Shown piece by piece: positions 2,981 through 51,373 of a stretch of DNA of 64,000 bases. How positions within the stretch are numbered: position 1 is the stretch's first letter; every line of letters starts with the position of its first letter. The DNA comes from Candidatus Kuenenbacteria bacterium HGW-Kuenenbacteria-1 (lineage in GTDB: Bacteria > Patescibacteriota > Patescibacteriia > UBA2591 > PGYQ01). A program made the position numbers and the translations under genes. Below the pieces are notes generated by a model. That model saw nothing but the letters and a program-made list of their open reading frames with translations, was not told where the DNA came from and made no database searches. The stretch is taken from NCBI GenBank assembly GCA_002839745.1, contig PGYQ01000002.1, positions 21,515 to 85,514 of the forward strand, read 5' to 3'.

Positions 2981-3519
2981 ATGAATAAATCAAATAAATT
3001 AAACTGGTATGTTTTAACTGGCGGACCTTCTTCTGGTAAAACCACTTTAATTAAAGAATTAAAAAAATTGGGCTATATTGTTTTTCTAGAAGCAGCCCGA
3101 GTTTTTATTGACAAAGAAATAGCCAAGGGTAAAATATTAAAAGAAATCAGAAACAATGAGACTGAATTTCAAAAAAAAATTTTAAAAATAAAAATAAAAA
3201 CAGAAAAAATAGCTCCAAAAAATAAAATAGTTTTTTTTGATAGAGCAATTCCCGATAGCATTGCTTATTATCAAACCTGTGGATTAAATCCAAAAGAAGT
3301 TTTAAAATTTTATAAAAAAAAATTTACAGAAAGATATTTTTTTTAGAACAACTTCCATTTGAAAATGATTATGCCCGAATTGAAGATAGCAAAACTATTA
3401 AAAAATTAAATAACCTTTTAAAAAAAAGTTATAAAGATTTAGGATATGAAATTATAAATATCCCTATAATGTCTATAGAAAAAAGAGTTCAAAAAATTTT
3501 AAGTGAGATAAAAAATTAA
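2981..3519 (+). CDS. P-loop NTPase (AAA_28/NadR-like ATPase-kinase family), interrupted by an apparent frameshift in a T8 run at 3337-3344
   Basis: N-terminal Walker A (GGPSSGKTT). The ORF stops at 3346. The +2 frame continues (QLPFENDYARIEDSKTIKKL...SEIKN*) to 3519. Confidence 0.5.
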
Positions 3520-3524
3520 AATTT

Positions 3525-4541
3525 ATGCAAACTTATACTAAAGCAGGAGTAAATAGAAAATTAAGAGAAAAAGCAAAAAAATCTCTTAATGATTTTGAAG
3601 AAACTTTTAATTTAAGCAACCATGGCAAAATAATAAAAACTCCTTTTAATGTTCTTTATCCGATTAATAAAAATCTTTATCAAGTAAAAACCTGTGATGG
3701 CGTTGGAACAAAAGTTCTTTTGGCTGAATTGGCTCAAAAACACGATACTATTGGAATTGATGCTGTGGCAATGGTAGTTAATGATTGTATTCGTTGTGGT
3801 GCAAAACCAATTGCTATCACTGATATTATTGATATTAAAAAATCAGAACCAAAATTATTAAAGGAAATTGAAAAAGGATTAATTCAAGGGATAAAAGAAG
3901 CAGATTGCCCTTTAGTAGGAGGTGAAACAGCTGATGTGCCTGAACTTTTAAACACAACTTATCATATTAATTGCGATTGCGTTGGAGAAATAAAAAAGAA
4001 AAATATAATTACTGGCGAAAAAATAAAAGAAAACGACGTGATTATTGGCTTCCCTAGTTCAGGAATTCATTCTAATGGTTTAACTTTAGTTAGAAAAGTT
4101 CTTTTTAAAAAATGGGGCGGAAAATTTAATTTTTTTGAAAAGCCAGCTGAATTAAATAAATCATTAATTTATGAATGTTTAGAGCCAACAAAAATTTATG
4201 TTAAATTATTTTTTAAAATTGCCAAAAAATTTGAAATTTTAGGCGCGGTTCATATTACTGGCGATGCTTATTTAAAATTTAAAAAGTTAAATCTTGGTTT
4301 TGAATTTTTTAATTTTAAACCTCAACCAATTTTTAATTTAATTCAAAAAACAGGAAAAATTAATAATAAGGAAATGTTTCAAACTTTTAATATGGGTTGG
4401 GGATTTGCTATTATTGTTAAAGAAAAAGATGCGAACAATATTTTACATTTATACCAAAAAGAGAAAGTGGAAGTAATTGGCAAAGTAATTAATAAAAATA
4501 AAATTATTATTAATTATCAAAAAAAGATTTTTATTATTTAA
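3525..4541 (+). CDS. purM: phosphoribosylformylglycinamidine cyclo-ligase (AIR synthetase)
   Basis: PurM motifs including DGVGTK, in a purine gene cluster. Confidence 0.85.
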   Translation: MQTYTKAGVNRKLREKAKKSLNDFEETFNLSNHGKIIKTPFNVLYPINKNLYQVKTCDGVGTKVLLAELAQKHDTIGIDAVAMVVNDCIRCGAKPIAITDIIDIKKSEPKLLKEIEKGLIQGIKEADCPLVGGETADVPELLNTTYHINCDCVGEIKKKNIITGEKIKENDVIIGFPSSGIHSNGLTLVRKVLFKKWGGKFNFFEKPAELNKSLIYECLEPTKIYVKLFFKIAKKFEILGAVHITGDAYLKFKKLNLGFEFFNFKPQPIFNLIQKTGKINNKEMFQTFNMGWGFAIIVKEKDANNILHLYQKEKVEVIGKVINKNKIIINYQKKIFII

Positions 4542-4546
4542 AATAT

Positions 4547-5989
4547 ATGCCTGATTTAAATTTAATTATGCCGGGCAATCCTCGTTATCAACCTAAAGAA
4601 ATGGCGTCTGTTTTTGGGTATGATAATTTATATAAAAAAATTGCTGAAGTAGAATTAGCAACTTTGGATACACTTTATGATTTAGGAATTATTCCAAAAA
4701 CAGATTGGAAAAAATTAAATAAAAAAACAAGACAAGAAATTCTTTCAATTAGAACAACAGCTGTGGATAAAGTTGAACAAGAAATAACGCATCATGATAT
4801 CAGAGCATTTGTAAGATGCGCTCAGGAAATTTTAGATAAAAAAATCGCTCGCTGGGTGCACATTCCTTTAACAAGTTATGATGTAATTGATACTGCTAGA
4901 ATTTTACAATTTAAAGAAGCTTATCAAGTAGCTCTTAAGCCTGCTTTAATCAGCATCACACAAATTTTTATTAAATTAATTAAAAATAATTCTCAACAAA
5001 TTCAAATTGGAAGAACTCATGGTCAACATGCTTTACCAATCACTGTTGGTTTTTGGTTAGCAACTATTTTAAATCGCATTATTAATAATTGGGAAAAAAT
5101 GGATTATTTTTATAATAATTTATCTGGAAAAATTTCTGGAGCAGTTGGCGCGCATAACGGGCAAATTGGTTTAAAATTATCAAACTTAAAAAATAATGAA
5201 ACTTTTGAAGAAAAAGTACTTAAAAAATTAGATTTAAAACCAGCTCAAATTAGCACACAAATTTTACCACCCGAGCCTTTAGCATATTTTCTTTTTTCAA
5301 TAATAAATATGTCAGCAACTTTTGGACAATTTGGACGAGACTCAAGACAATTAATGAGAAGTGAAATAGCTGAAATAACAGAATCATTTGAAGCAGGTCA
5401 AGTTGGATCTTCAACAATGGCTCATAAAAGAAATCCAATTAATTTTGAAAATTTGGAAGGTATGTGGCTTCGAACAAAAAATGAATTTGGAAAAGTTTTA
5501 GATACTTTAATTAGCGAACATCAAAGAGATTTAGTTGGAAGTTCTGTAGCCAGAGATTATCCAATTATTCTTATAAATCTTCAACAACAATTAAATACTT
5601 TGCTTAAAAAAAATAAAAATAACGTGGCGTTTTTAGAAAGATTGTCTATAAATAAAAAAGCTTGCGAGATTAATTTTAAAAAAAATGCTAATATAATTTT
5701 AGCTGAACCAATGTATATTGCTTTACAAATGGCAGGCTATAAAGAAGACGCTCACGAATTAGTTAATAGAAAATTAGTTCCAATTTCTCAAGAAAAAAAT
5801 ATTTCTCTAATTGAAGCATTGGAAAAATTAATGATAAATGATAAAATATTAAAAAATGTTGTTAAAAATATTCCTATTGAAGTTTGGGAATTATTAAAAT
5901 CACCTGAAAAATATATTGGCGATGCCAAAGAAAAATCATTAGAAGTTGTAAAATATGCAAAAAGTTTTTTAGATAAAATAGAGAAATAA
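4547..5989 (+). CDS. purB: adenylosuccinate lyase
   Basis: Fumarate-lyase signature GSSTMAHKRNP; 480 aa. Confidence 0.85.
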   Translation: MPDLNLIMPGNPRYQPKEMASVFGYDNLYKKIAEVELATLDTLYDLGIIPKTDWKKLNKKTRQEILSIRTTAVDKVEQEITHHDIRAFVRCAQEILDKKIARWVHIPLTSYDVIDTARILQFKEAYQVALKPALISITQIFIKLIKNNSQQIQIGRTHGQHALPITVGFWLATILNRIINNWEKMDYFYNNLSGKISGAVGAHNGQIGLKLSNLKNNETFEEKVLKKLDLKPAQISTQILPPEPLAYFLFSIINMSATFGQFGRDSRQLMRSEIAEITESFEAGQVGSSTMAHKRNPINFENLEGMWLRTKNEFGKVLDTLISEHQRDLVGSSVARDYPIILINLQQQLNTLLKKNKNNVAFLERLSINKKACEINFKKNANIILAEPMYIALQMAGYKEDAHELVNRKLVPISQEKNISLIEALEKLMINDKILKNVVKNIPIEVWELLKSPEKYIGDAKEKSLEVVKYAKSFLDKIEK

Positions 5990-6035: not shown

Positions 6036-7362
6036 ATGACTTACGAAAAAGGGCAAAAAATTATTGAAGGTAAAACTAAAATTATTTGGGAAATTAAAAA
6101 TGATTCTAAAAATGTGCTTATTGAAAACAAAAATGATATTACTGCTTTTGATGATCCATCTTTTACTAAACAATTTAAAACCAAAGCTGAAAATGCCACA
6201 ACAGTAACTTGCAAAATATTTGAATTATTAAAACAAGCAGGAATTCCTGTTGCCTACAATGAACAATGTTCTGCTAATGAATTTTCCTCACCAAAATGCG
6301 TAATGATTCCTTTGGAAGTTGTTGAAAGACGATTTGCTGTTGGAAGTTATTTAAAAAGACACCCAGAATTTATTAAAAATGATAATATTTTGCCACACAG
6401 ATTTCATAAATTGCTTATTGAATTTTTTCTAAAAACAACAAAAGGTGGTTTAATTAATTCTAAAGGAGAAAAAATATTAGAAGGATTAGATGCTTTAAAA
6501 GGAGAAGAAGATCCTTTTATTATTAATCCATTTGATGATGAATGGAAACTTTTTCATTCTAAAAAACCAAATTGGACAGAAGAAGCAGATTTTAAAAAAA
6601 TAATTAAAGCTAGTGATGCTTTTTCTGAATATTCTCAAGAAATTATAAAAAAAAATTGATGAGCTTTCAAGAAAAACTTTTTTAGTTTTAGAAGGTGCTT
6701 GGAATACTTTAGGTTTTAGATTGATTGATATGAAAATTGAATTTGGTTTAGATGTTGATGGAAATTTATTAGTATCTGATGTGATTGATAATGATAGTTG
6801 GAGACTTAGAGATGCTGATTGGAAAGAATTAAGCAAAGAAGCTTTTAGACAAGGCGAAACATTAGATGAAGTTGAAAAAAATTATAGTTATGTCGCAACT
6901 TTAACACAAAATTTTAGAATTCCTAAACAAGTTTTAGTTTTATGGCGCGGATCAGACAGTGATACTTTTCCAGAATTATCTATTTTAAAAAATATTGCTG
7001 GTTTAAATATTGAAGAAATAACTTTATCAGGACATAAATCTACACAAATGTGTCTTAATAAATTAAATGAAATTATTGGAAAATTTCCTGATGCAGGTGT
7101 AATTTTAGCTAAAGTTGGTAGAAGTAATGGGCTTGGTCCAATTATCGCATCACGAACTTCTTGGCCAGTAATTACTATTCCTGCAACATTAGAAACATTT
7201 CAAGAAGATATTTGGAGTAGTATTAGAATGCCATCAAATGTTCCTTTAGCTACTGTTTGGCCAGAATCAAACGGAATACTATTAGCATCAGAAATCTTAG
7301 CGCAAAAAAATCCAATAATTTATCAAAAAAGACAATTAACAATTGAAGAACAAGATGAATAA
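6036..7362 (+). CDS. purC-purE: bifunctional SAICAR synthetase (PurC) / AIR carboxylase (PurE) fusion, PAICS-like. Frame changes at the A9 run 6647-6655.
   Basis: 6036-6659 encodes the PurC N-terminal part. Frame +1 opens at 6649 (KKIDELSRKTFLVLEGAWNTLGFRLIDMKIEFG) and continues as the PurC C-terminus. It is followed in the same ORF by a PurE domain (VLVLWRGSDSD ... ILAKVGRSNGLGPIIASRTSWPVITIP). Confidence 0.7.
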
Positions 7363-7394: not shown

Positions 7395-9329
7395 ATGAAA
7401 AATATATTTGAACAACTTATAGATTTATTAAAAAAAGACGAGCGACTTGTTTCGCAAGACGGTATTCTTTTGAAAAATCAAACACAGGAATTGGCGCGCA
7501 AGAATGATCCGACGCTCTTAAAACTTTTGCTTTCCGATAAAACGATAAAACAACACTTCTTTTTTGAAATAGAAAAAACGCTGATTTTTGATAAAGAAAA
7601 ATTTATCCGTTTTGTTTCCAACAAACAATTTTTGCCGGATTCTTATACCGCTTTCAAAAACAAAATCGGTTTAACTGCTAACGATGAATATGTGAGTGAA
7701 AACAAAGAAGTGGTTTTGGCGTGGCCTTATAAAGATTGTGTTTTGGAAGGCGGAATGACTAAAGAAGACCAAAAGCGCGACGAGATTTTTTATAACGAAA
7801 CACTTGCGCCGGACGACATTAATCGCTTATTGGATGCCAAAGTTTTTACCAATTTCAAACGAATAGATAAAAAAGGCGAACACAAACTGAACGGCTTCAA
7901 TCGCGATGAAAAAGGCACAATTAAAGACAATTTAATTATCAAAGGCAATAACCTGCTCGCCCTTGCCTCGCTCAAAAAAGAATTCGCCGGAAAAGTGAAA
8001 CTTATTTACATTGATCCGCCATACAATACCGGCAATGATGGATTTAAATACAATGATTCATTCAATCATTCCTCGTGGCTTGTTTTTATAAAGAATAGAT
8101 TAGAGATAGCAAAAATATTGTTATCTAATGATGGTGTTATTTTTATACATTGCGATAATAACGAGCAGGCATACCTAAAAGTAATGATGGATGAAATTTT
8201 TGATAGGGATAATTTTATTGACATAATAACGGTTGTTAATAATCCAAGGGGACGAGATTATGGTGGCATTGCTAAAATGCACGAATTTATAAATGTATAT
8301 GCAAAATCATCTGATTATAAATTATATAGATTAGAAGAGCCAAATAAAGAATTTCCTTTTGCTGATAATATTAGCGGTTTTGAAATAAGGGAATTAAGAA
8401 ATAGAAATGTTAAATTTAACGATACAAATCGTCCAAACCTAGTTTATCCATTTTTTGTTAATTCTAAAAAAGAAGATAAAAATGGGTTTTTTGATATTGG
8501 TTTAGAACAAAAGACTGGGTGGGTAAAGGTTATGCCGGCTAAATCACAAGGTATTCAAACTGTTTGGCGGTGGGGCAGAGAAAAGTCAGCAAAAGAATTA
8601 AATATAAATATTTGTGGTAAACAAATGCAAAATGGTGGTTGGCAAATTGTTGAAAAATATCGCGAAAAAACAACAATGGCGAGGTCTGTTTGGTGGGATA
8701 AAAATGTAAATTCTGAAAGAGGAACGCTACATCTCAAAGAAATGTTTGGGAGTAAGTTATTTGATTATCCAAAACCAGAGGAAACACTACACAGAATTAT
8801 TGAGATGGCGACAAGACAGAATGATCTTGTTTTAGATTTTTTTGCTGGCTCGGGTACGACTTTAGCGGTGGCACACAAAACCGGACGACAATATATTGGT
8901 ATTGAGCAAATGGATTATATCCACGATTTGCCGGAAACGCGGCTCAAGAAAGTGATTGCCGGCGAGCAGGGTGGAATTTCCGAAGCCATCGGCTGGAAAG
9001 GCGGCGGGGATTTTGGCTATATGGAACTTGCTAAATGGAACGAAAAATGGATAGAAAAAATTGAAAAAGCAAAAACAGGCGAAGAGCTTTCCAAACTTTG
9101 GGGTGAGATGAAAGAAACCGCCTTTTTGAGCTACAAGGTAGATCCGAAAACGATTGACGCAAACGCCAAAGATTTTGCGGATTTGAGTGCCGCTGATCAA
9201 AAGAAGTTTTTAATTGAGTGCTTAGATAAAAACCAGCTCTATATCAATTTAAGCGAAATTGAGGATAAAGAGTACGAAGTGAGCAAGGAAGATAAAGCAC
9301 TCAATAAAAACTTCTATAACGGCAAATAA
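7395..9329 (+). CDS. mod: Type III restriction-modification DNA methyltransferase (Mod), beta-class N6-adenine methylase
   Basis: DPPY motif IV (IYIDPPYNTGNDG) precedes a central variable region, followed by motif I (DFFAGSGTT). Sits directly upstream of res. Confidence 0.8.
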   Translation: MKNIFEQLIDLLKKDERLVSQDGILLKNQTQELARKNDPTLLKLLLSDKTIKQHFFFEIEKTLIFDKEKFIRFVSNKQFLPDSYTAFKNKIGLTANDEYVSENKEVVLAWPYKDCVLEGGMTKEDQKRDEIFYNETLAPDDINRLLDAKVFTNFKRIDKKGEHKLNGFNRDEKGTIKDNLIIKGNNLLALASLKKEFAGKVKLIYIDPPYNTGNDGFKYNDSFNHSSWLVFIKNRLEIAKILLSNDGVIFIHCDNNEQAYLKVMMDEIFDRDNFIDIITVVNNPRGRDYGGIAKMHEFINVYAKSSDYKLYRLEEPNKEFPFADNISGFEIRELRNRNVKFNDTNRPNLVYPFFVNSKKEDKNGFFDIGLEQKTGWVKVMPAKSQGIQTVWRWGREKSAKELNINICGKQMQNGGWQIVEKYREKTTMARSVWWDKNVNSERGTLHLKEMFGSKLFDYPKPEETLHRIIEMATRQNDLVLDFFAGSGTTLAVAHKTGRQYIGIEQMDYIHDLPETRLKKVIAGEQGGISEAIGWKGGGDFGYMELAKWNEKWIEKIEKAKTGEELSKLWGEMKETAFLSYKVDPKTIDANAKDFADLSAADQKKFLIECLDKNQLYINLSEIEDKEYEVSKEDKALNKNFYNGK

Positions 9330-9331
9330 TT

Positions 9332-12001
9332 ATGTTATACGACGAATTTAACTCATATAAAAACTTTGCCGGCGCTGATGTTTTCAAAAACAAAGCGACT
9401 GAAAAAACGGATATTTTGAAAAATCTCAATCCGGCTTTTCCAGCGCGCGAATATCAAAAAGAAGCGTTGGGGCGATTTTATTATTATTGCGAAGAATATC
9501 ATCAAAAACTCAAACCAATTCACTTGATGTTTAATATGGCGACCGGCTCGGGCAAGACGCTCATAATGGCCGCTAATCTTTTGTATTTTTATCAAAAAGG
9601 TTATCGCAATTTTATTTTCTTTACTCGTCTTGGCAATATTATTCAAAAAACTAAAGCCAATTTTCTTGATCCAAATTCAAAAAAATATCTGTTTGCCGAC
9701 AAAATTATGCTAGGCGGACAGGAAATAAAAATCAAAGAATATAATAATTTTGAAGGAGTAAATGATGACGATATAAACATTATTTTTTCTACAACCGCTC
9801 TTTTGCATTCTCGCTTTAATTTCGCTCGCGAAAATGTTTTAACTTATGAAGATTTTACAGATAAAAAAATTGTTTTGATTGCGGATGAAGCGCACAACCT
9901 ATCTGCGGAAACAAATAATAAAATAAGTAAAACCGAAGAAGAAGACCGTCGAAACTGGGAGAATACAGTAGTGCGGATTTTGAACGCCAACAGCCAAAAA
10001 GAAAATGTCCTTTTGGAATTTACAGCAACGGCTCGTTTAGAACAGGAATATCCGGAAATTTTAGAAAAATATAAAGATAAAGCGATTTATCGTTATGATC
10101 TGAAAGAATATCGCTTGGACGGATTTTCAAAAGATGTACGAACTTTGCAAATCAACGCGCCAACTATTGAACGCGCTCTCTCGGCAGTGATAATTTCTCA
10201 ATATCGCCGAAAAGTAGCAGAAAAGTATAAAATCGCTTTGAAACCAGTGGTAATGTTTAAAGCAAATAGAGTCAGTATTCCAAAAGAAGGAATATCAAAA
10301 GAACACAATCCACAGATTGTCGTTTCAAACATTTTTAAAGAATCTTTTCATAAACTTATTTCTAAACTCGGCGAAAAACACCTAACACAACAAACAGCAA
10401 TTAAAGATGCGACATTACAAAAAGCATTTCAATTTTTCAATGAGCAAAAAATTTCTTTGGCAGATTTAGTGGCAGAAATTAAAAGCGATTTTGCGCCGGA
10501 AAAATGTTTGACAGTTGATGAATATAAAGATTTAGAGCAAAAACAAATTTTACTTAATTCGTTGGAAGATCAAAACAATGAAATCCGCGCTATTTTCGCA
10601 ACAGAAAAATTGAATGAGGGCTGGGATGTTTTAAATCTTTTTGATATTGTCAGGCTCTATAATAGCCGTGACGTCAAAAACAATAAACCGGGTAAAACAA
10701 CTGTGCAAGAGGCGCAACTTATCGGGCGAGGTGCAAGATATTATCCATTCACACTCGGCGACTTTACAGACGCATACAGGCGAAAATTTGATACCGACAC
10801 ACAAAACGAACTTCGGATTTTGGAACAGCTTTATTATCACAGCGTAACGAATCCCCGTTATATTCAAGAATTGGAAAGTGTTCTGGTTCGTGAAGGTATT
10901 ATGCCGTCACGCACAGTGCAAAAAGAGATTAAGATCAAAAGTGATTTTAAAAACAGCGATTTTTGGAATAAAGGTTTTATTTTCTTAAATGCTCGCAAAG
11001 AAAATTTAGGCAAGAATGTTTTCGCACTCTCGGACGCTAAAGCAGAATTTGACCACAACGCTGAAATAAACATCTTTCAACTATCAACGCGAGAAGCGAT
11101 AGAAAAAGATTTATTTGTTGCGGGTGCTGGCGCCGGAGTAAATGCAAAAATAGAAATTCTGGATTATAAAATCGCTGATTTGGGAACACATATTGTCCGC
11201 ACCGCTTTGGCGAAAATACCAGCCGGACGATTTGATAAATTAAAAAAAATATTTGGCAATATAGAATCCATAAAAGATTTTATTTTAAATGAAAAATATC
11301 TTGGAGGAATAAAAATTAAAGTGAGAGGTAAGAGCGAGCAAGTAGAAGATCTTTTGCAGATTGAAAAATTAAGTATTGCCGGATTTGTGATAGATAAAGT
11401 GTTAGAAATCGCCGGCAAAGAAAAAAAGGAATACTACGGAACAAAGGAATTTAAAGCTCATTTGATCCAAAAAATATTTGAAAATGACAAGGTATTGCAA
11501 TTGGATAGCGAAAGTTCACGAGCGCAAAATATGCGAGATTTTGATTTTTCTTCTCGGGATTGGTTTGCTCAAAACGAAATCTGGGGAACAAGCGAGGAAG
11601 AATCATTTTTGCGTTTTATTGATGAGTCAATAACAAAGTTAAAGAAAAAATATCAAGACATTGCATTACTTCGCAATGAACAATTTTTCAAAATTTATAA
11701 TTTTGATAATGGAGAGCCATTTTATCCAGATTTCGTTTTGTTTTTAACTGAAAAGGAAACAAAACAAGAAATTATATATCAAATTTTTGTTGAGCCAAAA
11801 GGAGATCATCTTGTATTATATGACGAATGGAAACAGGAATTTTTACTTAAGATAGAAAAAAATTACACTATTGATTTAAAACTAGAAAATAAAAATTTTC
11901 GCTTGATCGGATTGCCATTTTTTAATGAGGGTCAAGTAAATAGTGCTTTGCGTGAAAAATTTGAAGAAGTTTTTAAAAAACAATTTTTAGATATAAGCTA
12001 A
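9332..12001 (+). CDS. res: Type III restriction enzyme Res subunit (SF2 helicase-nuclease)
   Basis: Helicase motif I (MATGSGKT), motif II (IADEAHNL), 889 aa, start 3 nt after the mod stop. Confidence 0.8.
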   Translation: MLYDEFNSYKNFAGADVFKNKATEKTDILKNLNPAFPAREYQKEALGRFYYYCEEYHQKLKPIHLMFNMATGSGKTLIMAANLLYFYQKGYRNFIFFTRLGNIIQKTKANFLDPNSKKYLFADKIMLGGQEIKIKEYNNFEGVNDDDINIIFSTTALLHSRFNFARENVLTYEDFTDKKIVLIADEAHNLSAETNNKISKTEEEDRRNWENTVVRILNANSQKENVLLEFTATARLEQEYPEILEKYKDKAIYRYDLKEYRLDGFSKDVRTLQINAPTIERALSAVIISQYRRKVAEKYKIALKPVVMFKANRVSIPKEGISKEHNPQIVVSNIFKESFHKLISKLGEKHLTQQTAIKDATLQKAFQFFNEQKISLADLVAEIKSDFAPEKCLTVDEYKDLEQKQILLNSLEDQNNEIRAIFATEKLNEGWDVLNLFDIVRLYNSRDVKNNKPGKTTVQEAQLIGRGARYYPFTLGDFTDAYRRKFDTDTQNELRILEQLYYHSVTNPRYIQELESVLVREGIMPSRTVQKEIKIKSDFKNSDFWNKGFIFLNARKENLGKNVFALSDAKAEFDHNAEINIFQLSTREAIEKDLFVAGAGAGVNAKIEILDYKIADLGTHIVRTALAKIPAGRFDKLKKIFGNIESIKDFILNEKYLGGIKIKVRGKSEQVEDLLQIEKLSIAGFVIDKVLEIAGKEKKEYYGTKEFKAHLIQKIFENDKVLQLDSESSRAQNMRDFDFSSRDWFAQNEIWGTSEEESFLRFIDESITKLKKKYQDIALLRNEQFFKIYNFDNGEPFYPDFVLFLTEKETKQEIIYQIFVEPKGDHLVLYDEWKQEFLLKIEKNYTIDLKLENKNFRLIGLPFFNEGQVNSALREKFEEVFKKQFLDIS

Positions 12002-12125: not shown

Positions 12126-15100
12126 ATGTATCAATTTTACAGTTTAGTTGATGATAAACAAGAAAATTGTTATTACATTGACACAAATTCATCTTTGAAT
12201 AAAAAAGAAATTAAAATTTTGACCAAAATTTTGGCTAATGGTTTTATTGAAAAAAATATTAGTTTAGTTTCAAAATTAAATGATGAAAAAGTAATTGAAA
12301 TTGGACCTAGACTTAATTTTGCTACTGCTTTTTCTAGTAATGCTGTATCAGTTTGTCATAATTGCGGATTAAAAATAATTATACGAATTGAAAAAGCAAA
12401 AAGATATGATTTAAATAAAAATGATGATAGAAATAATTTCATTAAAACAAATCATGATAAAATGACTGAAATTGTTTATGAAAAAAAGTTAGAAAATTTT
12501 AAAACAAATTTAATTCCAAAACCAGTCTATGAAGTAAAAATTTTAGAACAAGGAATTGATGCTTTGAAAAAAATAAATAAAGAAATGGGCTTGGGAATGG
12601 ATGATTGGGACGAACAATTTTATTTCAATCTTTTTATTAATGACATAAAAAGAAATCCTACCAATGTTGAATGTTTTCAATTAGGTCAAGCTAATAGTGA
12701 ACATTCTAGACATTGGTTTTTTAAAGGCAGAATGATAATAGATGGAAAAGAAAAAGAAGAAACTTTGTTAGAAATAGTTCAATCAACTTTAAAAGCTAAT
12801 ATTGCAAATAGTTTAATTGCTTTTACTGATAATTCAAGCGCTATAAAAGGTTATGCTATTGAAACAATTATTCCAAAAACACCTGGAAAAGTTTCGTATT
12901 TTATAAAAACAAAGAAAAAATATAATTTTATTTTTACAGCTGAAACACATAATTTTCCAACAGGAATTGCTCCTTTTTCTGGTGCTGAAACAGGATCAGG
13001 AGGACGAATTAGAGATGTTCAAGCAACAGGAAAAGGATCTTTAGTTGTGGCAGGAACTGCTGGTTATGCAATTGGTAATCTTAATATTCCTAAATATAAT
13101 TTAGTTAATGAAAATAAAAATTTTAAATATCCAGATAATTTAGCAAGTGCTTTAAAAATTCAAATAGATGCTTCAAATGGAGTTTCTGATTATGGAAATA
13201 AATTTGGTGAACCATTAATTCAAGGATTTAATCGTTCTTTTGGTCAAATACTTCCTGATAAAACACGACAAGAATGGATAAAACCAATATTATTTTCTGG
13301 CGGTGTTGGACAAATTGATAATATTCATATTAAAAAATATAAAGTAGAAATTAAAATGTGTATAATTCAAATCGGCGGTCCAGCTTATCGTATTGGAATG
13401 GGTGGTGGAGCAGCTTCAAGTATGATTCAAGGTGAAAATAAAACAGAATTAGATTTTAATGCTGTTCAACGTGGTGATGCTGAAATTGAACAAAAAATAA
13501 ATCGAGTTATTCGCGCTTGTGTAGAAATGGGAAATAATAATCCAATTATTAGTATTCATGATCAAGGAGCTGGAGGACCTTGTAATGTTTTAACAGAATT
13601 AGTAGAACCAATCGGTGGCAAAATAGAAATTAGAAAAATTAATTTAGGTGATAAAACAATGTCAGTTTTAGAAATTTGGGGATGTGAATATCAAGAAAGA
13701 CAAGCTTTATTAATTAAACCAAATAAATTAAAATTATTTTTAAATATTTGTAAAAGAGAACATAGTGATTGTGAAATATTAGGAACAATTACTGGCGATG
13801 GAAAAATTATTGTTTATGATAATGAAAATAAATCAACACCAGTTAATTTAGAACTTTCTAAAATTCTTGGCAAAATGCCTAAAAAAATATTTAAAGACAC
13901 AAGTTTAAAAATGAAATTAACTCCATTAATATTTCCAAATAATTTATCTTTTGAAAAAGCTTTAGAAAATGTTTTACATTTGCCATCAGTTTGTTCAAAA
14001 AGATTTTTAACAACAAAAGTAGATCGCAGTGTAACAGGTTTAATTGCTCGTCAACAATGTGTTGGTCCTTTGCAACTTCCATTATCTGATGTTGCAGTAA
14101 TCGCACAAAGTCATTTTAATAAAACTGGCGCAGCTATTTCAATTGGGGAACAACCAATAAAAATTTTAGTTAACCCAGAAGCAGGCGCGCGGATGTCAGT
14201 TGGCGAAGCATTAACAAATATTGTTTGGGCAAAAATAAGTAAATTAGAAAATATTAAATGTTCTGGAAATTGGATGTGGCCAGCAAAATTACCAGGTGAA
14301 GCTTCAAGAATTTATCAATCAGCTTCAGCAATGCGTGATTTAATGATTAAATTAGGAATTGCAATTGATGGAGGAAAAGATAGTTTATCAATGGCAACAA
14401 AAATGAAAAATGAAATTATTAAATCACCAGAAGAATTAGTTATTTCAGCATATTCTTCAATGCCAGATATTAATAAAGTAATTACGCCAGATATTAAATA
14501 TGCTGGAGAAAGTGAGCTTTGGATTATTGATTTAGGAAAATCAAAATGTCGTTTAGGAGGATCAGCTTTAGCTCAAACTGTTAAACAAATTGGAAATCAA
14601 TCGCCAGATGTTGATGATGCAGAAATATTAAAACAATCTTTTTTAGCAATACAAGAATTAATTGAAAAAGATTTAATTATTTCAGGACACGATCGTTCAG
14701 ACGGCGGTTTAATAACAACATTACTTGAAATGGCTTTTGCTGGAAATTGTGGTTTAAAAATTAAAACAGAAAATAATGCTGATAAATTTGCTTATTATTT
14801 TAATGAAGAATTAGGTTATATAATTGAAGTAAAAAATAATCTAAAAAAAGAATTTTTAAAAATTATAAATAAATATAACTTAAATAATTTAACAGAATCT
14901 ATTGCAAAAACTATTATTGAAAAAGAAATTATTATTAACCATAATAATGAATTAATTTTAAAAAATTCAATGCAAAAATTAAGAGATATTTGGGAAGAAA
15001 CAAGTCATCAAATTAATTTACTTCAAACTGATCCAAAATGCGCTCAAGAAGAAAAAAATAATATTTTTAATCAACAAGTATTAGAATATAAAATTTCTTT

Positions 15101-15938
15101 TAAACCACAATTAACAACACAAAAAATATTAAACAGTATTAATAAACCTAAAATTGCAATTATTCGCGAAGAAGGAAGCAATGGAGATCGTGAAATGGCT
15201 AGTGCATTTTATTCTGCTGGTTTTGAAGTTTGGGATGTTACAATGTCTGATTTGCACACAGAAAAAATTAAATTAGATAAATTTAGAGGAATTGCTTTTG
15301 TTGGTGGATTTTCTTACGCAGATGTTTTTGCTTCAGCAAAAGGCTGGGCAAGTAATATAAAATTTAATCCAAAAATAAGTGAAATGTTTTCTAATTTTTA
15401 TAATCGTCCAGATACTTTTTCTTTAGGAGTTTGTAATGGTTGTCAATTAATGACTTCAATTGGCTGGGTTCCATTTAAAAATATTAAAGTTGAAAATCAG
15501 CCAATGCTTATTAAAAATAAATCAAAACGATTTGAATCACGTTGGAGTAATATAAAAATAAAAAAAAGTCCTTCAATAATGTTGAAAGGAATGGAAAATT
15601 CAATTCTCGGTGTTTGGGTCGCACATGGCGAAGGATGTTTTAATTTTCCAGATAAATTAATTTATCAAGAAATTATAAATAAAAATTTAGCGCCAATATT
15701 TTTTGTTGACGATAAAGGCGAAGCAACAGAAAAATATCCATTCAATCCAAACGGTTCTATCAATGGCATTACTTCTCTTTGTTCTGAAAATGGTCGTCAT
15801 TTAGCAATGATGCCTCATCCAGAAAGAGCATTTTTAAAATCACAATGGCCATGGATGTCAGAGAAAATGAAAAAAGAATTAAAAGCTTCGCCTTGGTTAA
15901 AAATGTTTCAAAATGCATATGAGTGGTGTAAAAAATAA
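12126..15938 (+). CDS. purL: phosphoribosylformylglycinamidine synthase, large single-chain form with C-terminal glutamine amidotransferase domain
   Basis: 1270 aa. FGAM synthetase domains plus the C-terminal type I glutamine amidotransferase (GATase) motif (GVCNGCQLM). Confidence 0.85.
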   Translation: MYQFYSLVDDKQENCYYIDTNSSLNKKEIKILTKILANGFIEKNISLVSKLNDEKVIEIGPRLNFATAFSSNAVSVCHNCGLKIIIRIEKAKRYDLNKNDDRNNFIKTNHDKMTEIVYEKKLENFKTNLIPKPVYEVKILEQGIDALKKINKEMGLGMDDWDEQFYFNLFINDIKRNPTNVECFQLGQANSEHSRHWFFKGRMIIDGKEKEETLLEIVQSTLKANIANSLIAFTDNSSAIKGYAIETIIPKTPGKVSYFIKTKKKYNFIFTAETHNFPTGIAPFSGAETGSGGRIRDVQATGKGSLVVAGTAGYAIGNLNIPKYNLVNENKNFKYPDNLASALKIQIDASNGVSDYGNKFGEPLIQGFNRSFGQILPDKTRQEWIKPILFSGGVGQIDNIHIKKYKVEIKMCIIQIGGPAYRIGMGGGAASSMIQGENKTELDFNAVQRGDAEIEQKINRVIRACVEMGNNNPIISIHDQGAGGPCNVLTELVEPIGGKIEIRKINLGDKTMSVLEIWGCEYQERQALLIKPNKLKLFLNICKREHSDCEILGTITGDGKIIVYDNENKSTPVNLELSKILGKMPKKIFKDTSLKMKLTPLIFPNNLSFEKALENVLHLPSVCSKRFLTTKVDRSVTGLIARQQCVGPLQLPLSDVAVIAQSHFNKTGAAISIGEQPIKILVNPEAGARMSVGEALTNIVWAKISKLENIKCSGNWMWPAKLPGEASRIYQSASAMRDLMIKLGIAIDGGKDSLSMATKMKNEIIKSPEELVISAYSSMPDINKVITPDIKYAGESELWIIDLGKSKCRLGGSALAQTVKQIGNQSPDVDDAEILKQSFLAIQELIEKDLIISGHDRSDGGLITTLLEMAFAGNCGLKIKTENNADKFAYYFNEELGYIIEVKNNLKKEFLKIINKYNLNNLTESIAKTIIEKEIIINHNNELILKNSMQKLRDIWEETSHQINLLQTDPKCAQEEKNNIFNQQVLEYKISFKPQLTTQKILNSINKPKIAIIREEGSNGDREMASAFYSAGFEVWDVTMSDLHTEKIKLDKFRGIAFVGGFSYADVFASAKGWASNIKFNPKISEMFSNFYNRPDTFSLGVCNGCQLMTSIGWVPFKNIKVENQPMLIKNKSKRFESRWSNIKIKKSPSIMLKGMENSILGVWVAHGEGCFNFPDKLIYQEIINKNLAPIFFVDDKGEATEKYPFNPNGSINGITSLCSENGRHLAMMPHPERAFLKSQWPWMSEKMKKELKASPWLKMFQNAYEWCKK

Positions 15939-35302: not shown

Positions 35303-35617
35303 ATGACAAAACAAAAACTTCAAAAAAATTTAAAACAAATTATCAAAGATCTCGAACCATATAAATCAGAAAAAATAATTCTTTATGGTTCTTGTGCTAA
35401 AGGTGATTTTAAAAAAAATAGTGATATTGATTTATTTATTATCAAAAAAACAAAAAAAAATTTTTTCGACAGACTTGACGATGTAAATAAATTAATTAAT
35501 CATAAAACGCCAATAGATATTCTTGTTTTTACTCCTAAAGAAATAAAAAAACGCCTTGCTTTAGAAGATTTCTTTTTTAAAGAAATAATTCAAAAAGGAA
35601 AAATTATTTATGAATAA
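35303..35617 (+). CDS. minimal nucleotidyltransferase (MNT), antitoxin of an MNT/HEPN pair
   Basis: GSCAKGDFKKNSDIDLFII nucleotidyltransferase motif; 104 aa; overlaps the downstream HEPN gene by 8 nt. Confidence 0.75.
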   Translation: MTKQKLQKNLKQIIKDLEPYKSEKIILYGSCAKGDFKKNSDIDLFIIKKTKKNFFDRLDDVNKLINHKTPIDILVFTPKEIKKRLALEDFFFKEIIQKGKIIYE

Positions 35618-36005
35618 TAAAAATTTAATTAAGGCAAAAGAATGGTTTAAAATTGCTGATAATGATTTTGGGTTTGCTAAATCCAGCTTTGAAGATAAGG
35701 ATGAATATTATGCTCAAATATGTTTTTTGTTTCATCAAGCTATTGAGAAATATTTAAAAGGCTACTTAATTGCTAAAGGAAAAATTCCTCAAAAAACTCA
35801 TGATTTAGCTTTTTTAATAGAAGAATGTAAAAAAATTAATTTAAAATTTAAAGAATTTGAATTAGAATGTAAAGAAATAAATAAATATTATATACCAAGT
35901 CGTTACCCAGTTCATTGGATAGAAGTAAAAAAAGAAAACACCAAAAAAGCTTTTGAAGCAGCAGAAAATATTACAAAATTCATCAAAGAAAACATTTTAT
36001 ATTAA
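35610..36005 (+). CDS. HEPN-domain protein (toxin of the MNT/HEPN pair)
   Basis: 131 aa, predicted helical, translationally coupled to the MNT gene. Confidence 0.65.
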   Translation: MNNKNLIKAKEWFKIADNDFGFAKSSFEDKDEYYAQICFLFHQAIEKYLKGYLIAKGKIPQKTHDLAFLIEECKKINLKFKEFELECKEINKYYIPSRYPVHWIEVKKENTKKAFEAAENITKFIKENILY

Positions 36006-38875: not shown

Positions 38876-41206
38876 TTATAAATTAGATGAATAAGATAAA
38901 GATTTTATATAATTTTCCATAAATTCCCAATCAGGTTTTTCATTTTTTGATGGGAGTTTTATAATCCTTTCTTTTAATCTTGTTTGACTAGCTTTTATTC
39001 CATAATTATATCGATATTGTTCCATATTTAAAATTGTTGTTAAAAATAAACCAATATATTTATTCAACTCAAATTTTGGTATTAATTTTTCTACATGATC
39101 ACTTGCTGAAAATCTTTTTTCTTGAAATGAACAATATCCTATAACAGCACTATCAATAGTTAAAATGTTCCCTTCTTCTGTAAAAAAATCATAAAAACCT
39201 CTCACTCCATTATTAGTTGCTTGTGTAGTAATAAAAGGATATTCTCCTTTTCCATATTCTTCTAAATCTAAAATGGAAGTTGTTTTACTTCCAGTAATTT
39301 CAAACAAATCTATTAAATTAAAATTTTTCCAATTTTTTATATTTAATTTAATATTTTCATTTTTTGAAATACTAGATTTTAAAATATTTTTATTAATAAA
39401 AATATTATTTGCTATTTCAAAGGCTAAATAATTACGAACATCTTTCTCAAAATCCTCTTTTGAAATATTTGAATAATCCGTCTCCATATAAGCTTCGGCA
39501 CACCATTCGTCGTTTGCTTTTACGACTTTATTTACACTAAGCCCTGCAATATTTTCGTGATTTTGAAAATTTACTATCCATTCTTTTTTTATTTTATTTT
39601 TAAAATTTTCAAATAAATCAATTCTTCCTTTATTTTTTCTTTTTACAAAACCATCGTTTTTATAATATCCAAAATAAGTTTTCTTTTCTGCAGGATGAGG
39701 TCTCTTTGCTGTAAAAACCATAATACAAGAAACAACATTTACTTTTGAATTAAAAAATAATTCATCTGGCATTGAAAAAACTGCTTCCAGAGTATGCTTC
39801 TCTAAAACTTTTTCTTTCCATTCATAAACTTTTCCTGTTTGAGCTAATGCACTTTGCATCGGAACAATTGCAACACATTTTCCTCCTTGTTCTAAACAAT
39901 CCAAATTATTTAAAATAAATTCAAATTCATCTATATCATTTTTTTTATCTGATTTATAAGGAGGATTGAGCAAGCCGACTGTTGGTTTAGAATTTTTAAC
40001 TTGTTTAATAATTTTTTCATCAAAACAACTTCCGTGAAAAATATTTGTTTTTCCATCTTGATGTATAAACATATTTGAACAAGCAAGAGCAAAAATATCT
40101 GCTTGATATTCAACACCAATTAATTGTTTTGTTTTTATTTCTTTTTCTTTTTCTTTATCACCTTTTGCATCTTTAATCATTAAATTCATAGATGACACAA
40201 GAAAACCACCAGTTCCAGTGCAATTATCATAAACAATACTATCTTTATTTACTTCAACAATTTCTGTCATAAATTCTGTGATATGCGGTGGAGTCAAAAC
40301 TATTCCTAAACCTTTATCACTATTTGCATATCGTAAAAATTCTACATAAAGTTGCCCAAGCACATCAAGATATTTATGATTTTTTATAAAATCTTTTATA
40401 TTTTCATTTATGTCTGTAATTATTTCAAGCAAAACATTGTGCTTATTTGAAAGACTTGTATCTGTTTTTATAAAAGAAAATTTTTGATCTAAAATAGCAA
40501 GTTTTTTTTCTCCAATTTTTCCGTTTTCAAATTCATTTCTAACAGTGGTTAATAAAAATTCTGATAATTGTTTTGGGTTAGTATAAGTTTTATATCCATC
40601 TTCAAAAGATTTATTTTCCAGAGCAATTAAAACACAAGAAAGTAATAATGCTCGATCGCTTTCTTTAACTTTATGCAAATGTAAATTATCATTAAGTTTT
40701 TTTGAAAAATCTAAAAGATTATTAAAATCTTGCCGAAACTTTTCAGGACTTTTTATATAACCTTCTAAATAATCTTTCGCTAATAATAATTTATTTGAAA
40801 AAATTTCAACAGAATTTTTTTCTCCTTTCATTTGTAAAAAATGTGAGACTTTTAATTCTTTAATATCAGCACCACTAACCGCAATTGAAATCACATCATA
40901 ATCTTTTGCTAAATAAGATGAATATAACAAAACTCCATCAACAGCATAATCTTTTGCTTCTTTTTTTGTTTCACTTTGATGTTTTAAAATATCAAATTTA
41001 CATTCAACAACAATTAAAAGATCTGAATTATTTTTGTACTGAATAATAAATTCCGGAAAACCTTTTCCGTTTCCACTTTTAGAGGCAGTATTTAATAATT
41101 TTTGAATTTTCAAATTTTTAGAAGATTGTTCTTCCAAAATAATATCATCCGAATATTTTTTAAAATGGTCTCTAACAATATTTTCTGTATCTCTTTCGTT
41201 TTTCAT
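38876..41206 (-). CDS. single-chain Type IIG-like restriction-modification enzyme: N-terminal PD-(D/E)xK nuclease, gamma-class N6-adenine methyltransferase, C-terminal HsdS-like target recognition domain
   Basis: DLLIVVECKFD nuclease-like motif near the N-terminus. NPPY methylase motif (LLNPPYKSD). The C-terminal about 190 aa resembles a Type I S-subunit target recognition domain (TRD). Confidence 0.6.
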   Translation of the reverse strand: MKNERDTENIVRDHFKKYSDDIILEEQSSKNLKIQKLLNTASKSGNGKGFPEFIIQYKNNSDLLIVVECKFDILKHQSETKKEAKDYAVDGVLLYSSYLAKDYDVISIAVSGADIKELKVSHFLQMKGEKNSVEIFSNKLLLAKDYLEGYIKSPEKFRQDFNNLLDFSKKLNDNLHLHKVKESDRALLLSCVLIALENKSFEDGYKTYTNPKQLSEFLLTTVRNEFENGKIGEKKLAILDQKFSFIKTDTSLSNKHNVLLEIITDINENIKDFIKNHKYLDVLGQLYVEFLRYANSDKGLGIVLTPPHITEFMTEIVEVNKDSIVYDNCTGTGGFLVSSMNLMIKDAKGDKEKEKEIKTKQLIGVEYQADIFALACSNMFIHQDGKTNIFHGSCFDEKIIKQVKNSKPTVGLLNPPYKSDKKNDIDEFEFILNNLDCLEQGGKCVAIVPMQSALAQTGKVYEWKEKVLEKHTLEAVFSMPDELFFNSKVNVVSCIMVFTAKRPHPAEKKTYFGYYKNDGFVKRKNKGRIDLFENFKNKIKKEWIVNFQNHENIAGLSVNKVVKANDEWCAEAYMETDYSNISKEDFEKDVRNYLAFEIANNIFINKNILKSSISKNENIKLNIKNWKNFNLIDLFEITGSKTTSILDLEEYGKGEYPFITTQATNNGVRGFYDFFTEEGNILTIDSAVIGYCSFQEKRFSASDHVEKLIPKFELNKYIGLFLTTILNMEQYRYNYGIKASQTRLKERIIKLPSKNEKPDWEFMENYIKSLSYSSNL

Positions 41207-46155: not shown

Positions 46156-49100
46156 TTATTTTATTTTATATTCTTTTCTATCATAAAATTCTTCTTGTTT
46201 ACCTTCATGCCATTGTTGTATTGGTCTAATATAACCAGTAACTCGGGAATATACTTCACAATTTTTATTACATTGCGGACACTTAAAATGTTCTCCTGCA
46301 ATATAACCATGGTCAGGACAAACACTGAAAGTTGGAGTAATGGTAAAATATGGCAAATGATAATTTTCAGCAATTCGTTTAACTAATTGCTTAGTTGCTT
46401 CAACTGATGGCATTTTTTCTCCAATAAATCCATGAAAAACCGTTCCTCCTGAATATTTACATTGTAATTCATCTTGAAAATCTAAAGCTTCAAAAATATC
46501 ATCTGTATAATTTACTGGCAAATGGCTAGAATTGGTATAATAAAAAGCTTTTTCTCCTGCAGTAATTATTTTTGGATATTTTTTTTTGTCAATTTTAGCC
46601 AAACGATAAGAAGTTCCTTCAGCAGGGACTGCTTCTAAATTGTAAATATTTCCTGTTTCATTTTGAATTTCTTTCAATTTTTCTCGCATAAAATCTAAAA
46701 TTTCTAAAGCAAATTCTCTCCCCTCTTTACTGGCTATGTCTTTATTTTTGCCTAAAAAATTTAAACAAGCCTCATTAATTCCCAAAGGTCCAATGGTAGA
46801 AAAATGATGATCTAAATTTCCTAAATATCTTTTAGTATAAGGAAATAATCCATTATTTAAATTATGAGTAACTACTTTTCTTTTAATTTCTAAAGATTCT
46901 TTTGCTAAATCCATTTGTTTGGCTAATCGATCAAAAAAATCTTTTTTATCTTTTGCTAAATAACCAATGCGAGGCATATTAATAGTCACAACTCCCACCG
47001 AACCAGTTGATTCGCCAGAACCAAAAAGTCCACCTGTCTTTGCTCTTAATTGATTAAGATTCATTTGTAATCTACAACACATTGATCGAACATCGGTTGG
47101 TTTTAATTCACTATTTATAAAATTTTGGAAATATGGTATTCCATATTTGGCTGTCATTTCAAAAAGTAAATTTGTATTTGAAGTATCCCAATTAAAATCT
47201 TTAGTAATATTATATGTAGGAATTGGAAATGTAAAAACCCTCCCTTTATTATCCCCTTCTGTGGCTACTTCTATAAAAGCCCTATTTATCATATCCATTT
47301 CTTTTTGATAATCCTCATAAGTAGTTTCTTGTAATTTGCCACCAATAATTACTGGATCGTTTTTTAAATCTTCCGGCACAGTCCAATCAAAGGTTAAATT
47401 AGTAAATGGCGTATTCCCTGTTATAAAAGTTTTTCCATTTCTTCTTGCAATAAAAGTGCCATTTAAAGTAGTTGGACACCAAACTTTTCCTTTGTATTTT
47501 TTCTTTGAAATTTGAGTTATTGAAGTTATATTATTTCTAATAATATTTATAACGTAAACGCCATTTTCTCTTTGTTTAATGGTTGTTCCATAATTAGACA
47601 AAACGCATAATTCTTGTAAATCATTTTTATTTTTTTCATCTTTTGTAAATATTCTTATCCTACCTTTAAACTCTCGATGACCATCACCTTTAATATAAGT
47701 ATGAATAAAAAGTTGGATTTGATCAGCGGAAAGTGTTTTAATTAAAGAAGGTATTTCTTTTTTATTTATTATTTTTCGAATTTTTTTTGAAGATTCTTGA
47801 TTTAATCTAAATCTTAAAATTATTCCACTATTTAAAAATCCACCATTTTTTTTCATTTCATCCCATTTAAAATTCAATTTTTTTAAACAGGTTCTTATTT
47901 CATTACAATTAGCTATATTTTTTTCTGATTGAAATATATAAACTCGATCTCTATCACCATCTGAAAAACTTCCTTCAGAAACAAACCAAGCAATTATTTT
48001 TAATAAATTTTCGTCTATTTCTTTTTTTGAAACAGTTATAGATGAATTGGGTATTAAAATTGGCGTTTTAAATTTTAAAGCTTTTTCAATTTCTAATAAT
48101 TCAAACTCGCCATTATTAAATATTTTTCTGACAATTTTGTGACCAGGTGTTATTAATTGATCTTGTGTTCTATTTTTTAAATTAAATAAATAACCATTAT
48201 AATCATAAGAACAAACTCTTTCTGGTTTTAAATATTCAATTATTTTTTTTTCTAAATTAAAAGTTGCTATCTTATCTTCTTTTTTAATCTCTAAATATTT
48301 TTTCCATCCATTATCTGTTAATGCTTCTGTGTCTTCACTAACACATTGAGTCCCCCATCTAGAAGGTGCGGCAATATTAAACATAAATTTTTGAATATTT
48401 TGTTTTACTTCTTTATAAGTTAAATGATCCGCTCGCACAAATGGAGCTAAATAAGTATCAAAAGAACTAAAGGCTTGAGCCCCAGCCCATTCATTTTGTA
48501 AAATTCCCCAAAAATTTACCATTTGTCCCAAAACTGTTTCTAAATGTTTGGGTGGCGCGCATTCAATTCGATTTTCAACACCTCCCAATCCTTGCAAAAG
48601 TAATTGTCGTAAACTCCAACCAGCACAATAAGCATTTAAACCCATTGATAAATCATGAAGATGTATATCTCCCTCTTTATGAGCTTGAGCAATTTTTGCT
48701 GGATAAACATTTTCTAAAAGATAATTAGCAATAACGGACCCAGAAATATGAAGCATCAATCCTCCAAACGAATAACCAATATTGGCATTTTCTTTTACTC
48801 TCCAATCTTCTTGTTTTAAATAACCATCCATAATTTTTTCAATATCCATCATTACTCCGCCCATTTCACGCACTTTTTCTTGCTGTTTTCTATATAAAAT
48901 ATAAGCCTTTGCCACTTCAACCAAACCAGCTTTAATTAAAACCTTTTCAACAATGTCTTGGATTTCTTCAACAGTGGGAATATTTTTTGAATCAAATTGA
49001 TATTCAAGAATGGTTAATACCTTATCAGATAATTTTTTTGACTTTTTTCCATCTTTTCCTTCAATAGCAACAATGGCCTTATAAATGGCTTGAGTAATTT

Positions 49101-49176
49101 TTTCTTGATCAAATTCAACCATTCTTCCATTCCGCTTCCGAATTTTTTGTATTTTAAATTTTTTTATTTGTTTCAT
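46156..49176 (-). CDS. nrdD: anaerobic ribonucleoside-triphosphate reductase (class III, NrdD) interrupted by an intein
   Basis: N-terminal ATP-cone. C-terminal Zn ribbon (CPDHG...CPQCNKNC) and glycyl-radical motif (SRVTGYIRP). Extein junctions are RWGTQ|C and N|TPFTN. Confidence 0.8.
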   Translation of the reverse strand: MKQIKKFKIQKIRKRNGRMVEFDQEKITQAIYKAIVAIEGKDGKKSKKLSDKVLTILEYQFDSKNIPTVEEIQDIVEKVLIKAGLVEVAKAYILYRKQQEKVREMGGVMMDIEKIMDGYLKQEDWRVKENANIGYSFGGLMLHISGSVIANYLLENVYPAKIAQAHKEGDIHLHDLSMGLNAYCAGWSLRQLLLQGLGGVENRIECAPPKHLETVLGQMVNFWGILQNEWAGAQAFSSFDTYLAPFVRADHLTYKEVKQNIQKFMFNIAAPSRWGTQCVSEDTEALTDNGWKKYLEIKKEDKIATFNLEKKIIEYLKPERVCSYDYNGYLFNLKNRTQDQLITPGHKIVRKIFNNGEFELLEIEKALKFKTPILIPNSSITVSKKEIDENLLKIIAWFVSEGSFSDGDRDRVYIFQSEKNIANCNEIRTCLKKLNFKWDEMKKNGGFLNSGIILRFRLNQESSKKIRKIINKKEIPSLIKTLSADQIQLFIHTYIKGDGHREFKGRIRIFTKDEKNKNDLQELCVLSNYGTTIKQRENGVYVINIIRNNITSITQISKKKYKGKVWCPTTLNGTFIARRNGKTFITGNTPFTNLTFDWTVPEDLKNDPVIIGGKLQETTYEDYQKEMDMINRAFIEVATEGDNKGRVFTFPIPTYNITKDFNWDTSNTNLLFEMTAKYGIPYFQNFINSELKPTDVRSMCCRLQMNLNQLRAKTGGLFGSGESTGSVGVVTINMPRIGYLAKDKKDFFDRLAKQMDLAKESLEIKRKVVTHNLNNGLFPYTKRYLGNLDHHFSTIGPLGINEACLNFLGKNKDIASKEGREFALEILDFMREKLKEIQNETGNIYNLEAVPAEGTSYRLAKIDKKKYPKIITAGEKAFYYTNSSHLPVNYTDDIFEALDFQDELQCKYSGGTVFHGFIGEKMPSVEATKQLVKRIAENYHLPYFTITPTFSVCPDHGYIAGEHFKCPQCNKNCEVYSRVTGYIRPIQQWHEGKQEEFYDRKEYKIK
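47413..48345 (-). mobile_element. intein (311 aa) with a LAGLIDADG-type homing endonuclease domain inside nrdD
   Basis: Starts with Cys (CVSEDTEALTDNG) and ends ...ITGN, followed by extein Thr. Internal KIIAWFVSEGSFSDGD is a LAGLIDADG-like motif. Confidence 0.65.

Positions 49177-49556: not shown

Positions 49557-51373
<1,817 letters not shown>

Follow-up and report, generated by a model that had tools for sequence, protein, structure and literature searches.

Positions 6036 to 7362 of the 64,000-nucleotide stretch analysed here (the window) very probably hold one gene, purCE, for a PAICS-type bifunctional enzyme in which an N-terminal PurC (SAICAR synthetase) domain is followed by a C-terminal class II PurE, and whose reading frame carries a real and recent insertion of a single A. 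The predicted gene identity, a PAICS-type PurC-PurE fusion, is secure. The deposited proteins PKL72547-PKL72585 belong to Candidatus Kuenenbacteria bacterium HGW-Kuenenbacteria-1 and lie on a 106,816-bp contig of a 760-kb genome in 28 scaffolds, recovered from Horonobe groundwater (PMC5520028). The G+C content of the window is 27.8%.

One PurC-PurE gene in two reading frames

The first open reading frame (ORF; 6036..6659, + strand, 207 aa) encodes the N-terminal 205 residues of PurC, as assigned by the Pfam SAICAR_synt match of the joined protein, followed by two off-frame codons and a TGA stop (6657-6659) with a second TGA directly after it. The second frame (+1; 6649..7362, + strand) carries PurC residues 206-292, a linker and the PurE domain, and ends with a stop at 7360-7362. 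The two frames overlap at a run of exactly nine As (A9; 6647..6655, + strand). Removal of one A yields a continuous protein of 441 aa, the same length as the closest intact homologues, and a run of either eight or eleven As (A8 or A11) gives one unbroken ORF of 441 or 442 codons. While the deposited sequence is broken at A9, its A8 version encodes a single 441-aa chain as found in 105 of 105 homologous loci. In the public annotation the locus is listed as two genes for hypothetical proteins of 207 aa (PKL72550.1) and 210 aa.

The initial annotation had placed SAICAR synthetase and PurE in one frame once the A9 frame change was allowed, and profile searches bore this out: the joined 441-aa protein matches both Pfam SAICAR_synt (PF01259, E 6.5e-36) and AIRC (E 6.1e-17), in the order PurC then PurE. 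It also matches the NCBIfam purC and purE models with scores under their trusted cut-offs, as expected because the lineage is divergent. Readthrough of TGA as an amino acid was considered and rejected, as the downstream part lies in the other frame and the original frame runs into a TAG. An antisense ORF (6495-6836) was likewise rejected as a gene; its matches to antisense ORFs in relatives simply follow from conservation of the sense gene.

Similarity to PAICS and the PurC domain

The best solved relatives of the joined protein are Bombyx PAICS (4ja0, E 3e-53) and human PAICS (2h31, E 1e-49), each matched over both domains and far above any stand-alone PurC (E 1.7e-19) or PurE. Direct comparison with human PAICS gave 31% identity over 448 columns (E 2e-54); the human query agrees with the human segments in the structure-search alignment. 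An AlphaFold model of an intact, 87%-identical relative (P0001) reached a pLDDT of 92 and a pTM of 0.92, and its top Foldseek matches in the PDB are the full-length PAICS structures 6yb8 and 4ja0 (TM 0.61-0.66, ~450 columns).

In the N-terminal SAICAR synthetase domain, the ATP- and substrate-binding residues are intact as judged from the PF01259 match and the human PAICS alignment. The ATP-binding loop G-K-T-K (residues 12-15; 6069..6080, + strand) corresponds to human Gly16-Lys19 and is invariant in 121 family members, as are E94, K233, DNDSWR, K267 and R271, all of which align to human residues listed previously (PMC9376930). An insert of ~38 aa (residues 134-171) is conserved in the family, and the SAICAR-binding (ITAGN) loop has Phe38/Asp39 at the positions of human Gly42/Asn43.

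PurE class and the search for PurK

The PurE domain (AIR carboxylase; residues 296-441; 6922..7359, + strand; Pfam AIRC 305-433) has PAICS 4ja0 and 2h31 as its best solved structures and, by its sequence signatures, is class II. Its phosphate/ribose-binding loop G-S-D-S-D (residues 305-309; 6949..6963, + strand) corresponds to human G273-D277. The loop S-G-H-K (residues 331-334; 7027..7038, + strand), in which the catalytic His is followed by the class II Lys, corresponds to human S301-K304, and G-R-S-N-G-L-G-P (residues 361-368; 7117..7140, + strand), a class II signature identical in human and Bombyx PAICS, to human G330-L335. These three human segments line the AIR carboxylase site (PMC9376930), and the Arg of class I versus Lys304 of human PAICS is a visible active-site difference between the PurE classes (PMC10484210). 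Across the 121 family members, the His of S-G-H-K is present in all and the Lys in 120, and little or no variation occurs at the Ser-Asn-Gly-Leu and Pro positions. The class I structures that this search also aligned (T. maritima 1o4v, M. jannaschii 2ywx) instead carry A-H-R and G-x-A-A-H-L-P-G loops. The class II reading first made from the sequence is upheld by this alignment: the loops are those of human and insect PAICS, and the class I set of S-A-H-R and A-A-H-L-P-G loops with a PurK partner was not found for the window PurE domain.

The earlier observation that purK is missing from the window also stood. Profile searches of the window ORFs of at least 100 aa, with smaller ORFs and reconstructed genes tested in addition, found no ATP-grasp or PurK family, and tblastn with an E. 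coli PurK query gave no match, either in the window or across 109 related loci. PurK was not found in the flanks of the relatives' loci; the absence covers the 64-kb window and these flanks, out of a 760-kb genome.

From homology and the conserved catalytic residues, the PurE part is predicted to add CO2 directly to AIR to give CAIR, using neither ATP nor PurK, and the PurC part to join CAIR to aspartate with ATP, giving SAICAR. The flanking purM would make the substrate AIR, and purB would use the product SAICAR.

Operon and surroundings

Four closely spaced genes, AAA_28 kinase, purM, purB and, last, purCE, form one string. A terminator-like hairpin (2903-2939) and then a promoter-like site (2947-2974; both + strand, by consensus scan only) lie ahead of this string. 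It continues with the AAA_28/NadR-like kinase gene (2981..3520, + strand), purM (AIR synthetase; 3525..4541, + strand; TIGR00878, E 8.7e-89) and purB (adenylosuccinate lyase; 4547..5989, + strand), which adjoins purCE. Adjacency of purB and purCE is conserved in the relatives, with an AAA_28 gene, purL and purM nearby; the AAA_28 gene lies beside purine genes in the relatives L023 and L028. Downstream, a type III restriction-modification pair (mod 644 aa, res 889 aa; 7395-12001) separates purCE from purL (FGAR amidotransferase; 12126..15938, + strand), an intact, large single chain of 1270 aa; relatives have other genes in place of the restriction-modification pair. Upstream of the operon, a HAD-like ORF (2423-2905, 160 aa) aligns with HAD_2 over the C-terminal half only. 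The N-terminal catalytic part is missing, and the ORF may be a gene remnant.

The fusion in Patescibacteria

The initial annotation had called this layout typical of eukaryotic PAICS. The domain order and the best matches are indeed those of PAICS, but the PurC-PurE fusion is also the standard form in Patescibacteria and is neither rare nor only eukaryotic. More than 100 intact full-length homologues were found in Patescibacteria. In a database of 5.8 billion proteins, all 120 of the best 120 clusters are fused, with lengths of 431-457 aa, both Pfam domains and 54-87% identity to the window protein; those that are named belong to Parcubacteria, Pacebacteria, Minisyncoccia or unspecified Patescibacteria. 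The family is already in public databases in large numbers, named as PurC/PurE (the JGI label for homologues is 'phosphoribosylaminoimidazole carboxylase / phosphoribosylaminoimidazole-succinocarboxamide synthase'), and the enzyme type is well understood. Within the literature library searched, no paper was found that links PAICS with Patescibacteria or Parcubacteria, and nothing specific on a described bacterial or Patescibacteria PAICS. In one survey, complete de novo purine synthesis was found in about one third of such genomes (PMC11608272).

Among 1.84 billion representatives clustered at 50% identity, 276 matched at E <= 1e-30. Fused proteins account for 74 of the best 150 of these, and ~56 are PAICS-like PurC proteins without PurE. 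Such PurE-less proteins of ~300 aa also occur in individual loci (L016 10001-10864, L017, L018, L019), some of them 50-60% identical to fused proteins; in this part of the family the fusion was therefore lost or never formed. Four representatives are 42-58% identical to human PAICS and are presumably eukaryotic. In two Bacteroidales loci (L020 6287-7467, L021 3158-4503), a distant purC-like gene has a separate purE directly after it, and a second purC is present. A neighbour-joining tree, rooted on the Bacteroidales purC-like/purE pair and without bootstrap, places the eukaryote clade as sister to the prokaryotic fused clade rather than nested within it, which we take only as a hint.

Origin of the frame break

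The A9 frame change is present as the initial annotation described it, and one A removed joins the frames; it is not shared by the gene family, however, as the extra A is found only in this organism across the 105 loci compared. A single alignment runs through the break site in all 105 of the other homologous loci, and the alignment is split only in two loci cut from the same organism. The out-of-frame arrangement occurs in 0 of these 105 loci, and the best 120 database proteins are all single full-length ORFs. In the closest relative (L022, whose protein is 87% identical) the site is ATA AAA AAA ATT, an in-frame A8 run, and the next relatives (L023-25, 76%) read ATG AAA AAA ATT, an in-frame A7 run also found in L030; the long A run is restricted to the closest AT-rich relatives. 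These sequences suggest that a G-to-A change first extended the tract in this AT-rich lineage, after which the window gene gained one more A.

Comparison with L022 gave a dN/dS of ~0.16, with 0.19 on the N-terminal and 0.13 on the C-terminal side of the break, and the 441 codons contain no other stop or indel. The low dN/dS on both sides and the lack of further lesions therefore indicate purifying selection for nearly all of the gene's history. The break is most likely a real, recent insertion of a single A, and neither a programmed signal nor an old pseudogene. By this analysis the window copy of purCE would be at most leaky and, in the worst case, a pseudogene in the making, and only slippage on the A9 run, in transcription or on the ribosome, would give full-length enzyme.

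Other breaks and features of the window

Two further genes are interrupted at A runs. The AAA_28 gene, first of the purCE operon, is split at an A9 run (3314-3322), and with one A added its product covers PF13521 positions 2-164 of 164 (E 8e-33). In a GHKL ATPase gene (52051-53516) the frame shifts at an A6 run (52199-52204), leaving ORFs of 62 aa and 426 aa, and the joined product gains a HATPase_c_3 match spanning the junction (E 3e-13). The 426-aa product of this split gene is on record from two contigs, with Logan listed as a source.

Runs of A or T in the whole window number 58 of length eight and 14 of length nine, with none of ten or more. The 16S rRNA gene (49558-51373) measures 1816 nt against a 1533-nt model and therefore contains ~280 nt of inserted sequence. 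The anaerobic ribonucleotide reductase NrdD (46156-49176, - strand, 1006 aa) has an insert of ~311 aa that starts with Cys, ends with Gly-Asn before Thr and matches LAGLIDADG_3; from these sequence features it looks like an intein with a homing endonuclease. A nucleotidyltransferase/HEPN gene pair (35303-36005) and a 776-aa N6 DNA methylase with a type I specificity domain protein (38876-41206) were also observed.

Interpretation of the frame break

Many Patescibacteria lack nucleotide synthesis. It is quite possible, if short of probable, that the purine operon is being lost here, with purCE and AAA_28 as fresh pseudogenes that yield no useful product in a cell living on salvaged purines. Two of the three broken genes share one operon, beside the truncated HAD-like ORF, a pattern equally consistent with relaxed selection on purine synthesis, and purCE has been parted from purL by insertion of a restriction-modification pair. 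Against such a loss, purM, purB and the 1270-aa purL are intact, the 441 codons of purCE are otherwise free of lesions with a low dN/dS on both sides of the break, and slippage on A9 should give some full-length product. This reading overlaps with that of a recent insertion in a formerly functional gene and differs from it only in whether the residual product matters.

A slip of +2 or -1, or a +1 slip of Lys-tRNA within A9, would produce I-K-K(-K)-I-D and a normal enzyme, and some full-length product would therefore be expected. Bacterial RNA polymerases slip appreciably on runs of nine As or Ts, and slippage softens poly(A) frameshifts in Buchnera and Blochmannia (PMC5009743). The run at 6647-6655 reaches the slippage-prone length of at least nine A/T reported in that work (PMC5009743). 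We consider it conceivable, though rather doubtful, that the A9 breaks in purCE and AAA_28 are both genuine and tolerated, with slippage of RNA polymerase or Lys-tRNA supplying enough in-frame product. If true, this would be the first Patescibacteria genome in which slippage rescues broken metabolic genes, as is known for insect endosymbionts.

Homopolymer indels are a classic error of draft genomes, and an extra A introduced in sequencing or assembly would mean that the true gene is an intact A8 version. The exact match of this version to the 441-aa length of the relatives would fit such an error, and the three homopolymer breaks in 64 kb (A9, A9 and A6) could point to a systematic one. The source study used TruSeq Nano libraries, Illumina HiSeq2000 sequencing and IDBA-UD assembly (PMC5520028). 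The Logan assembly of run SRR3546457, made by a different assembler, matches 9,443 bases of the window without a difference, the purCE and AAA_28 breaks included; the A9 length rests on these two assemblies, which are probably of the same read set. The HiSeq2000 platform with TruSeq Nano libraries rarely mis-calls homopolymer length in a consensus. The breaks go in differing ways, with one gain and two apparent losses, and one of them interrupts a run of only six As, a length at which error is very unlikely. No record of an intact allele was found: an exact look-up of the reconstructed purCE (A8 and A11), AAA_28 and GHKL products among ~15 billion proteins gave no match, and a DNA pattern search spanning the A run, at any run length, in JGI metagenome contigs also came back empty. 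A protein-guided scan recovered 80 loci, none closer than 76% identity, and no independent sample of the same strain. Given the agreement of two assemblers, the Illumina data, and indels in differing directions with one in A6, we regard sequencing error as unlikely.

Programmed recoding, either a ribosomal +1 frameshift or deliberate transcriptional slippage making two products, would find in A9 a run long enough for appreciable slippage by bacterial RNA polymerase (PMC5009743), with stop codons directly after it. It is nonetheless highly improbable, as none of the 105 homologous loci has a break and the long run is confined to the closest AT-rich relatives, reading the upstream sequence by eye revealed no Shine-Dalgarno-like element, and the truncated 207-aa product would be half a PurC domain. 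That the locus comprises two separate working genes, for a short PurC-like protein and a PurE with an N-terminal extension, as the public calls of 207 aa and 210 aa would have it, is barely credible, with a split at residues 205/206 that falls inside the 292-residue PurC fold and not between PurC and PurE, a single ORF in every relative, and no start codon in the second ORF until 6721/6730, well inside conserved PurC sequence. With error unlikely and the break not conserved as a signal, a genuine recent insertion remains.

Significance

For annotation, the two public hypothetical proteins should be read as one frameshifted PAICS-type gene, and counts of purine-pathway completeness in small genomes depend on such gene calls. 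More broadly, a large bacterial radiation normally makes SAICAR from AIR by what is predicted to be an animal-style, fused and PurK-independent route, and the breadth of bacterial PAICS-type enzymes has been under-noticed. The presence of this route in Patescibacteria bears on the origin of animal PAICS and weakens the textbook contrast between a 10-step human and an 11-step microbial pathway. The three reproducible homopolymer breaks in 64 kb also raise the question of whether these AT-rich genomes tolerate such breaks through slippage.

Comparison with known systems

The closest characterised counterparts are the animal PAICS enzymes (human 2h31, 6yb8 and 7ale; Bombyx mori 4ja0), which likewise have PurC followed by class II PurE on one chain and share the PurC residues GKTK, E94, K233, DNDSWR, K267 and R271 and the PurE motifs GSxSD, S-x-H-K and G-R-S-N-G-L. 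Unlike these, the window protein is encoded by a bacterial gene within an operon, is only 31% identical to its human counterpart, has a PurC insert of ~38 aa missing from human PAICS, and has Phe-Asp where the ITAGN loop has Gly-Asn.

The PurE of Treponema denticola (3rg8) is a characterised bacterial class II AIR carboxylase that works without PurK (PMC9376930), and its S-A-H-K and G-R-S-N-A-L loops resemble those of the window domain. It is, however, a stand-alone protein of 159 aa with no PurC fusion, and it scores 30.6 bits versus 51-63 bits for the PurE domains of PAICS. Class I PurE (E. coli 1qcz/1d7a and others) shares the PurE fold and the universal catalytic His but has Arg after this His and an A-A-H-L-P-G loop and needs PurK and ATP, none of which was found in the window.

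With respect to the frame break, the poly(A) frameshifts of Buchnera and Blochmannia offer the nearest parallel, as they too interrupt otherwise intact genes at runs of ~9 As in small, AT-rich genomes. The window differs from these in lineage and lifestyle, and in that one of its three breaks lies in A6, which is too short for efficient slippage.
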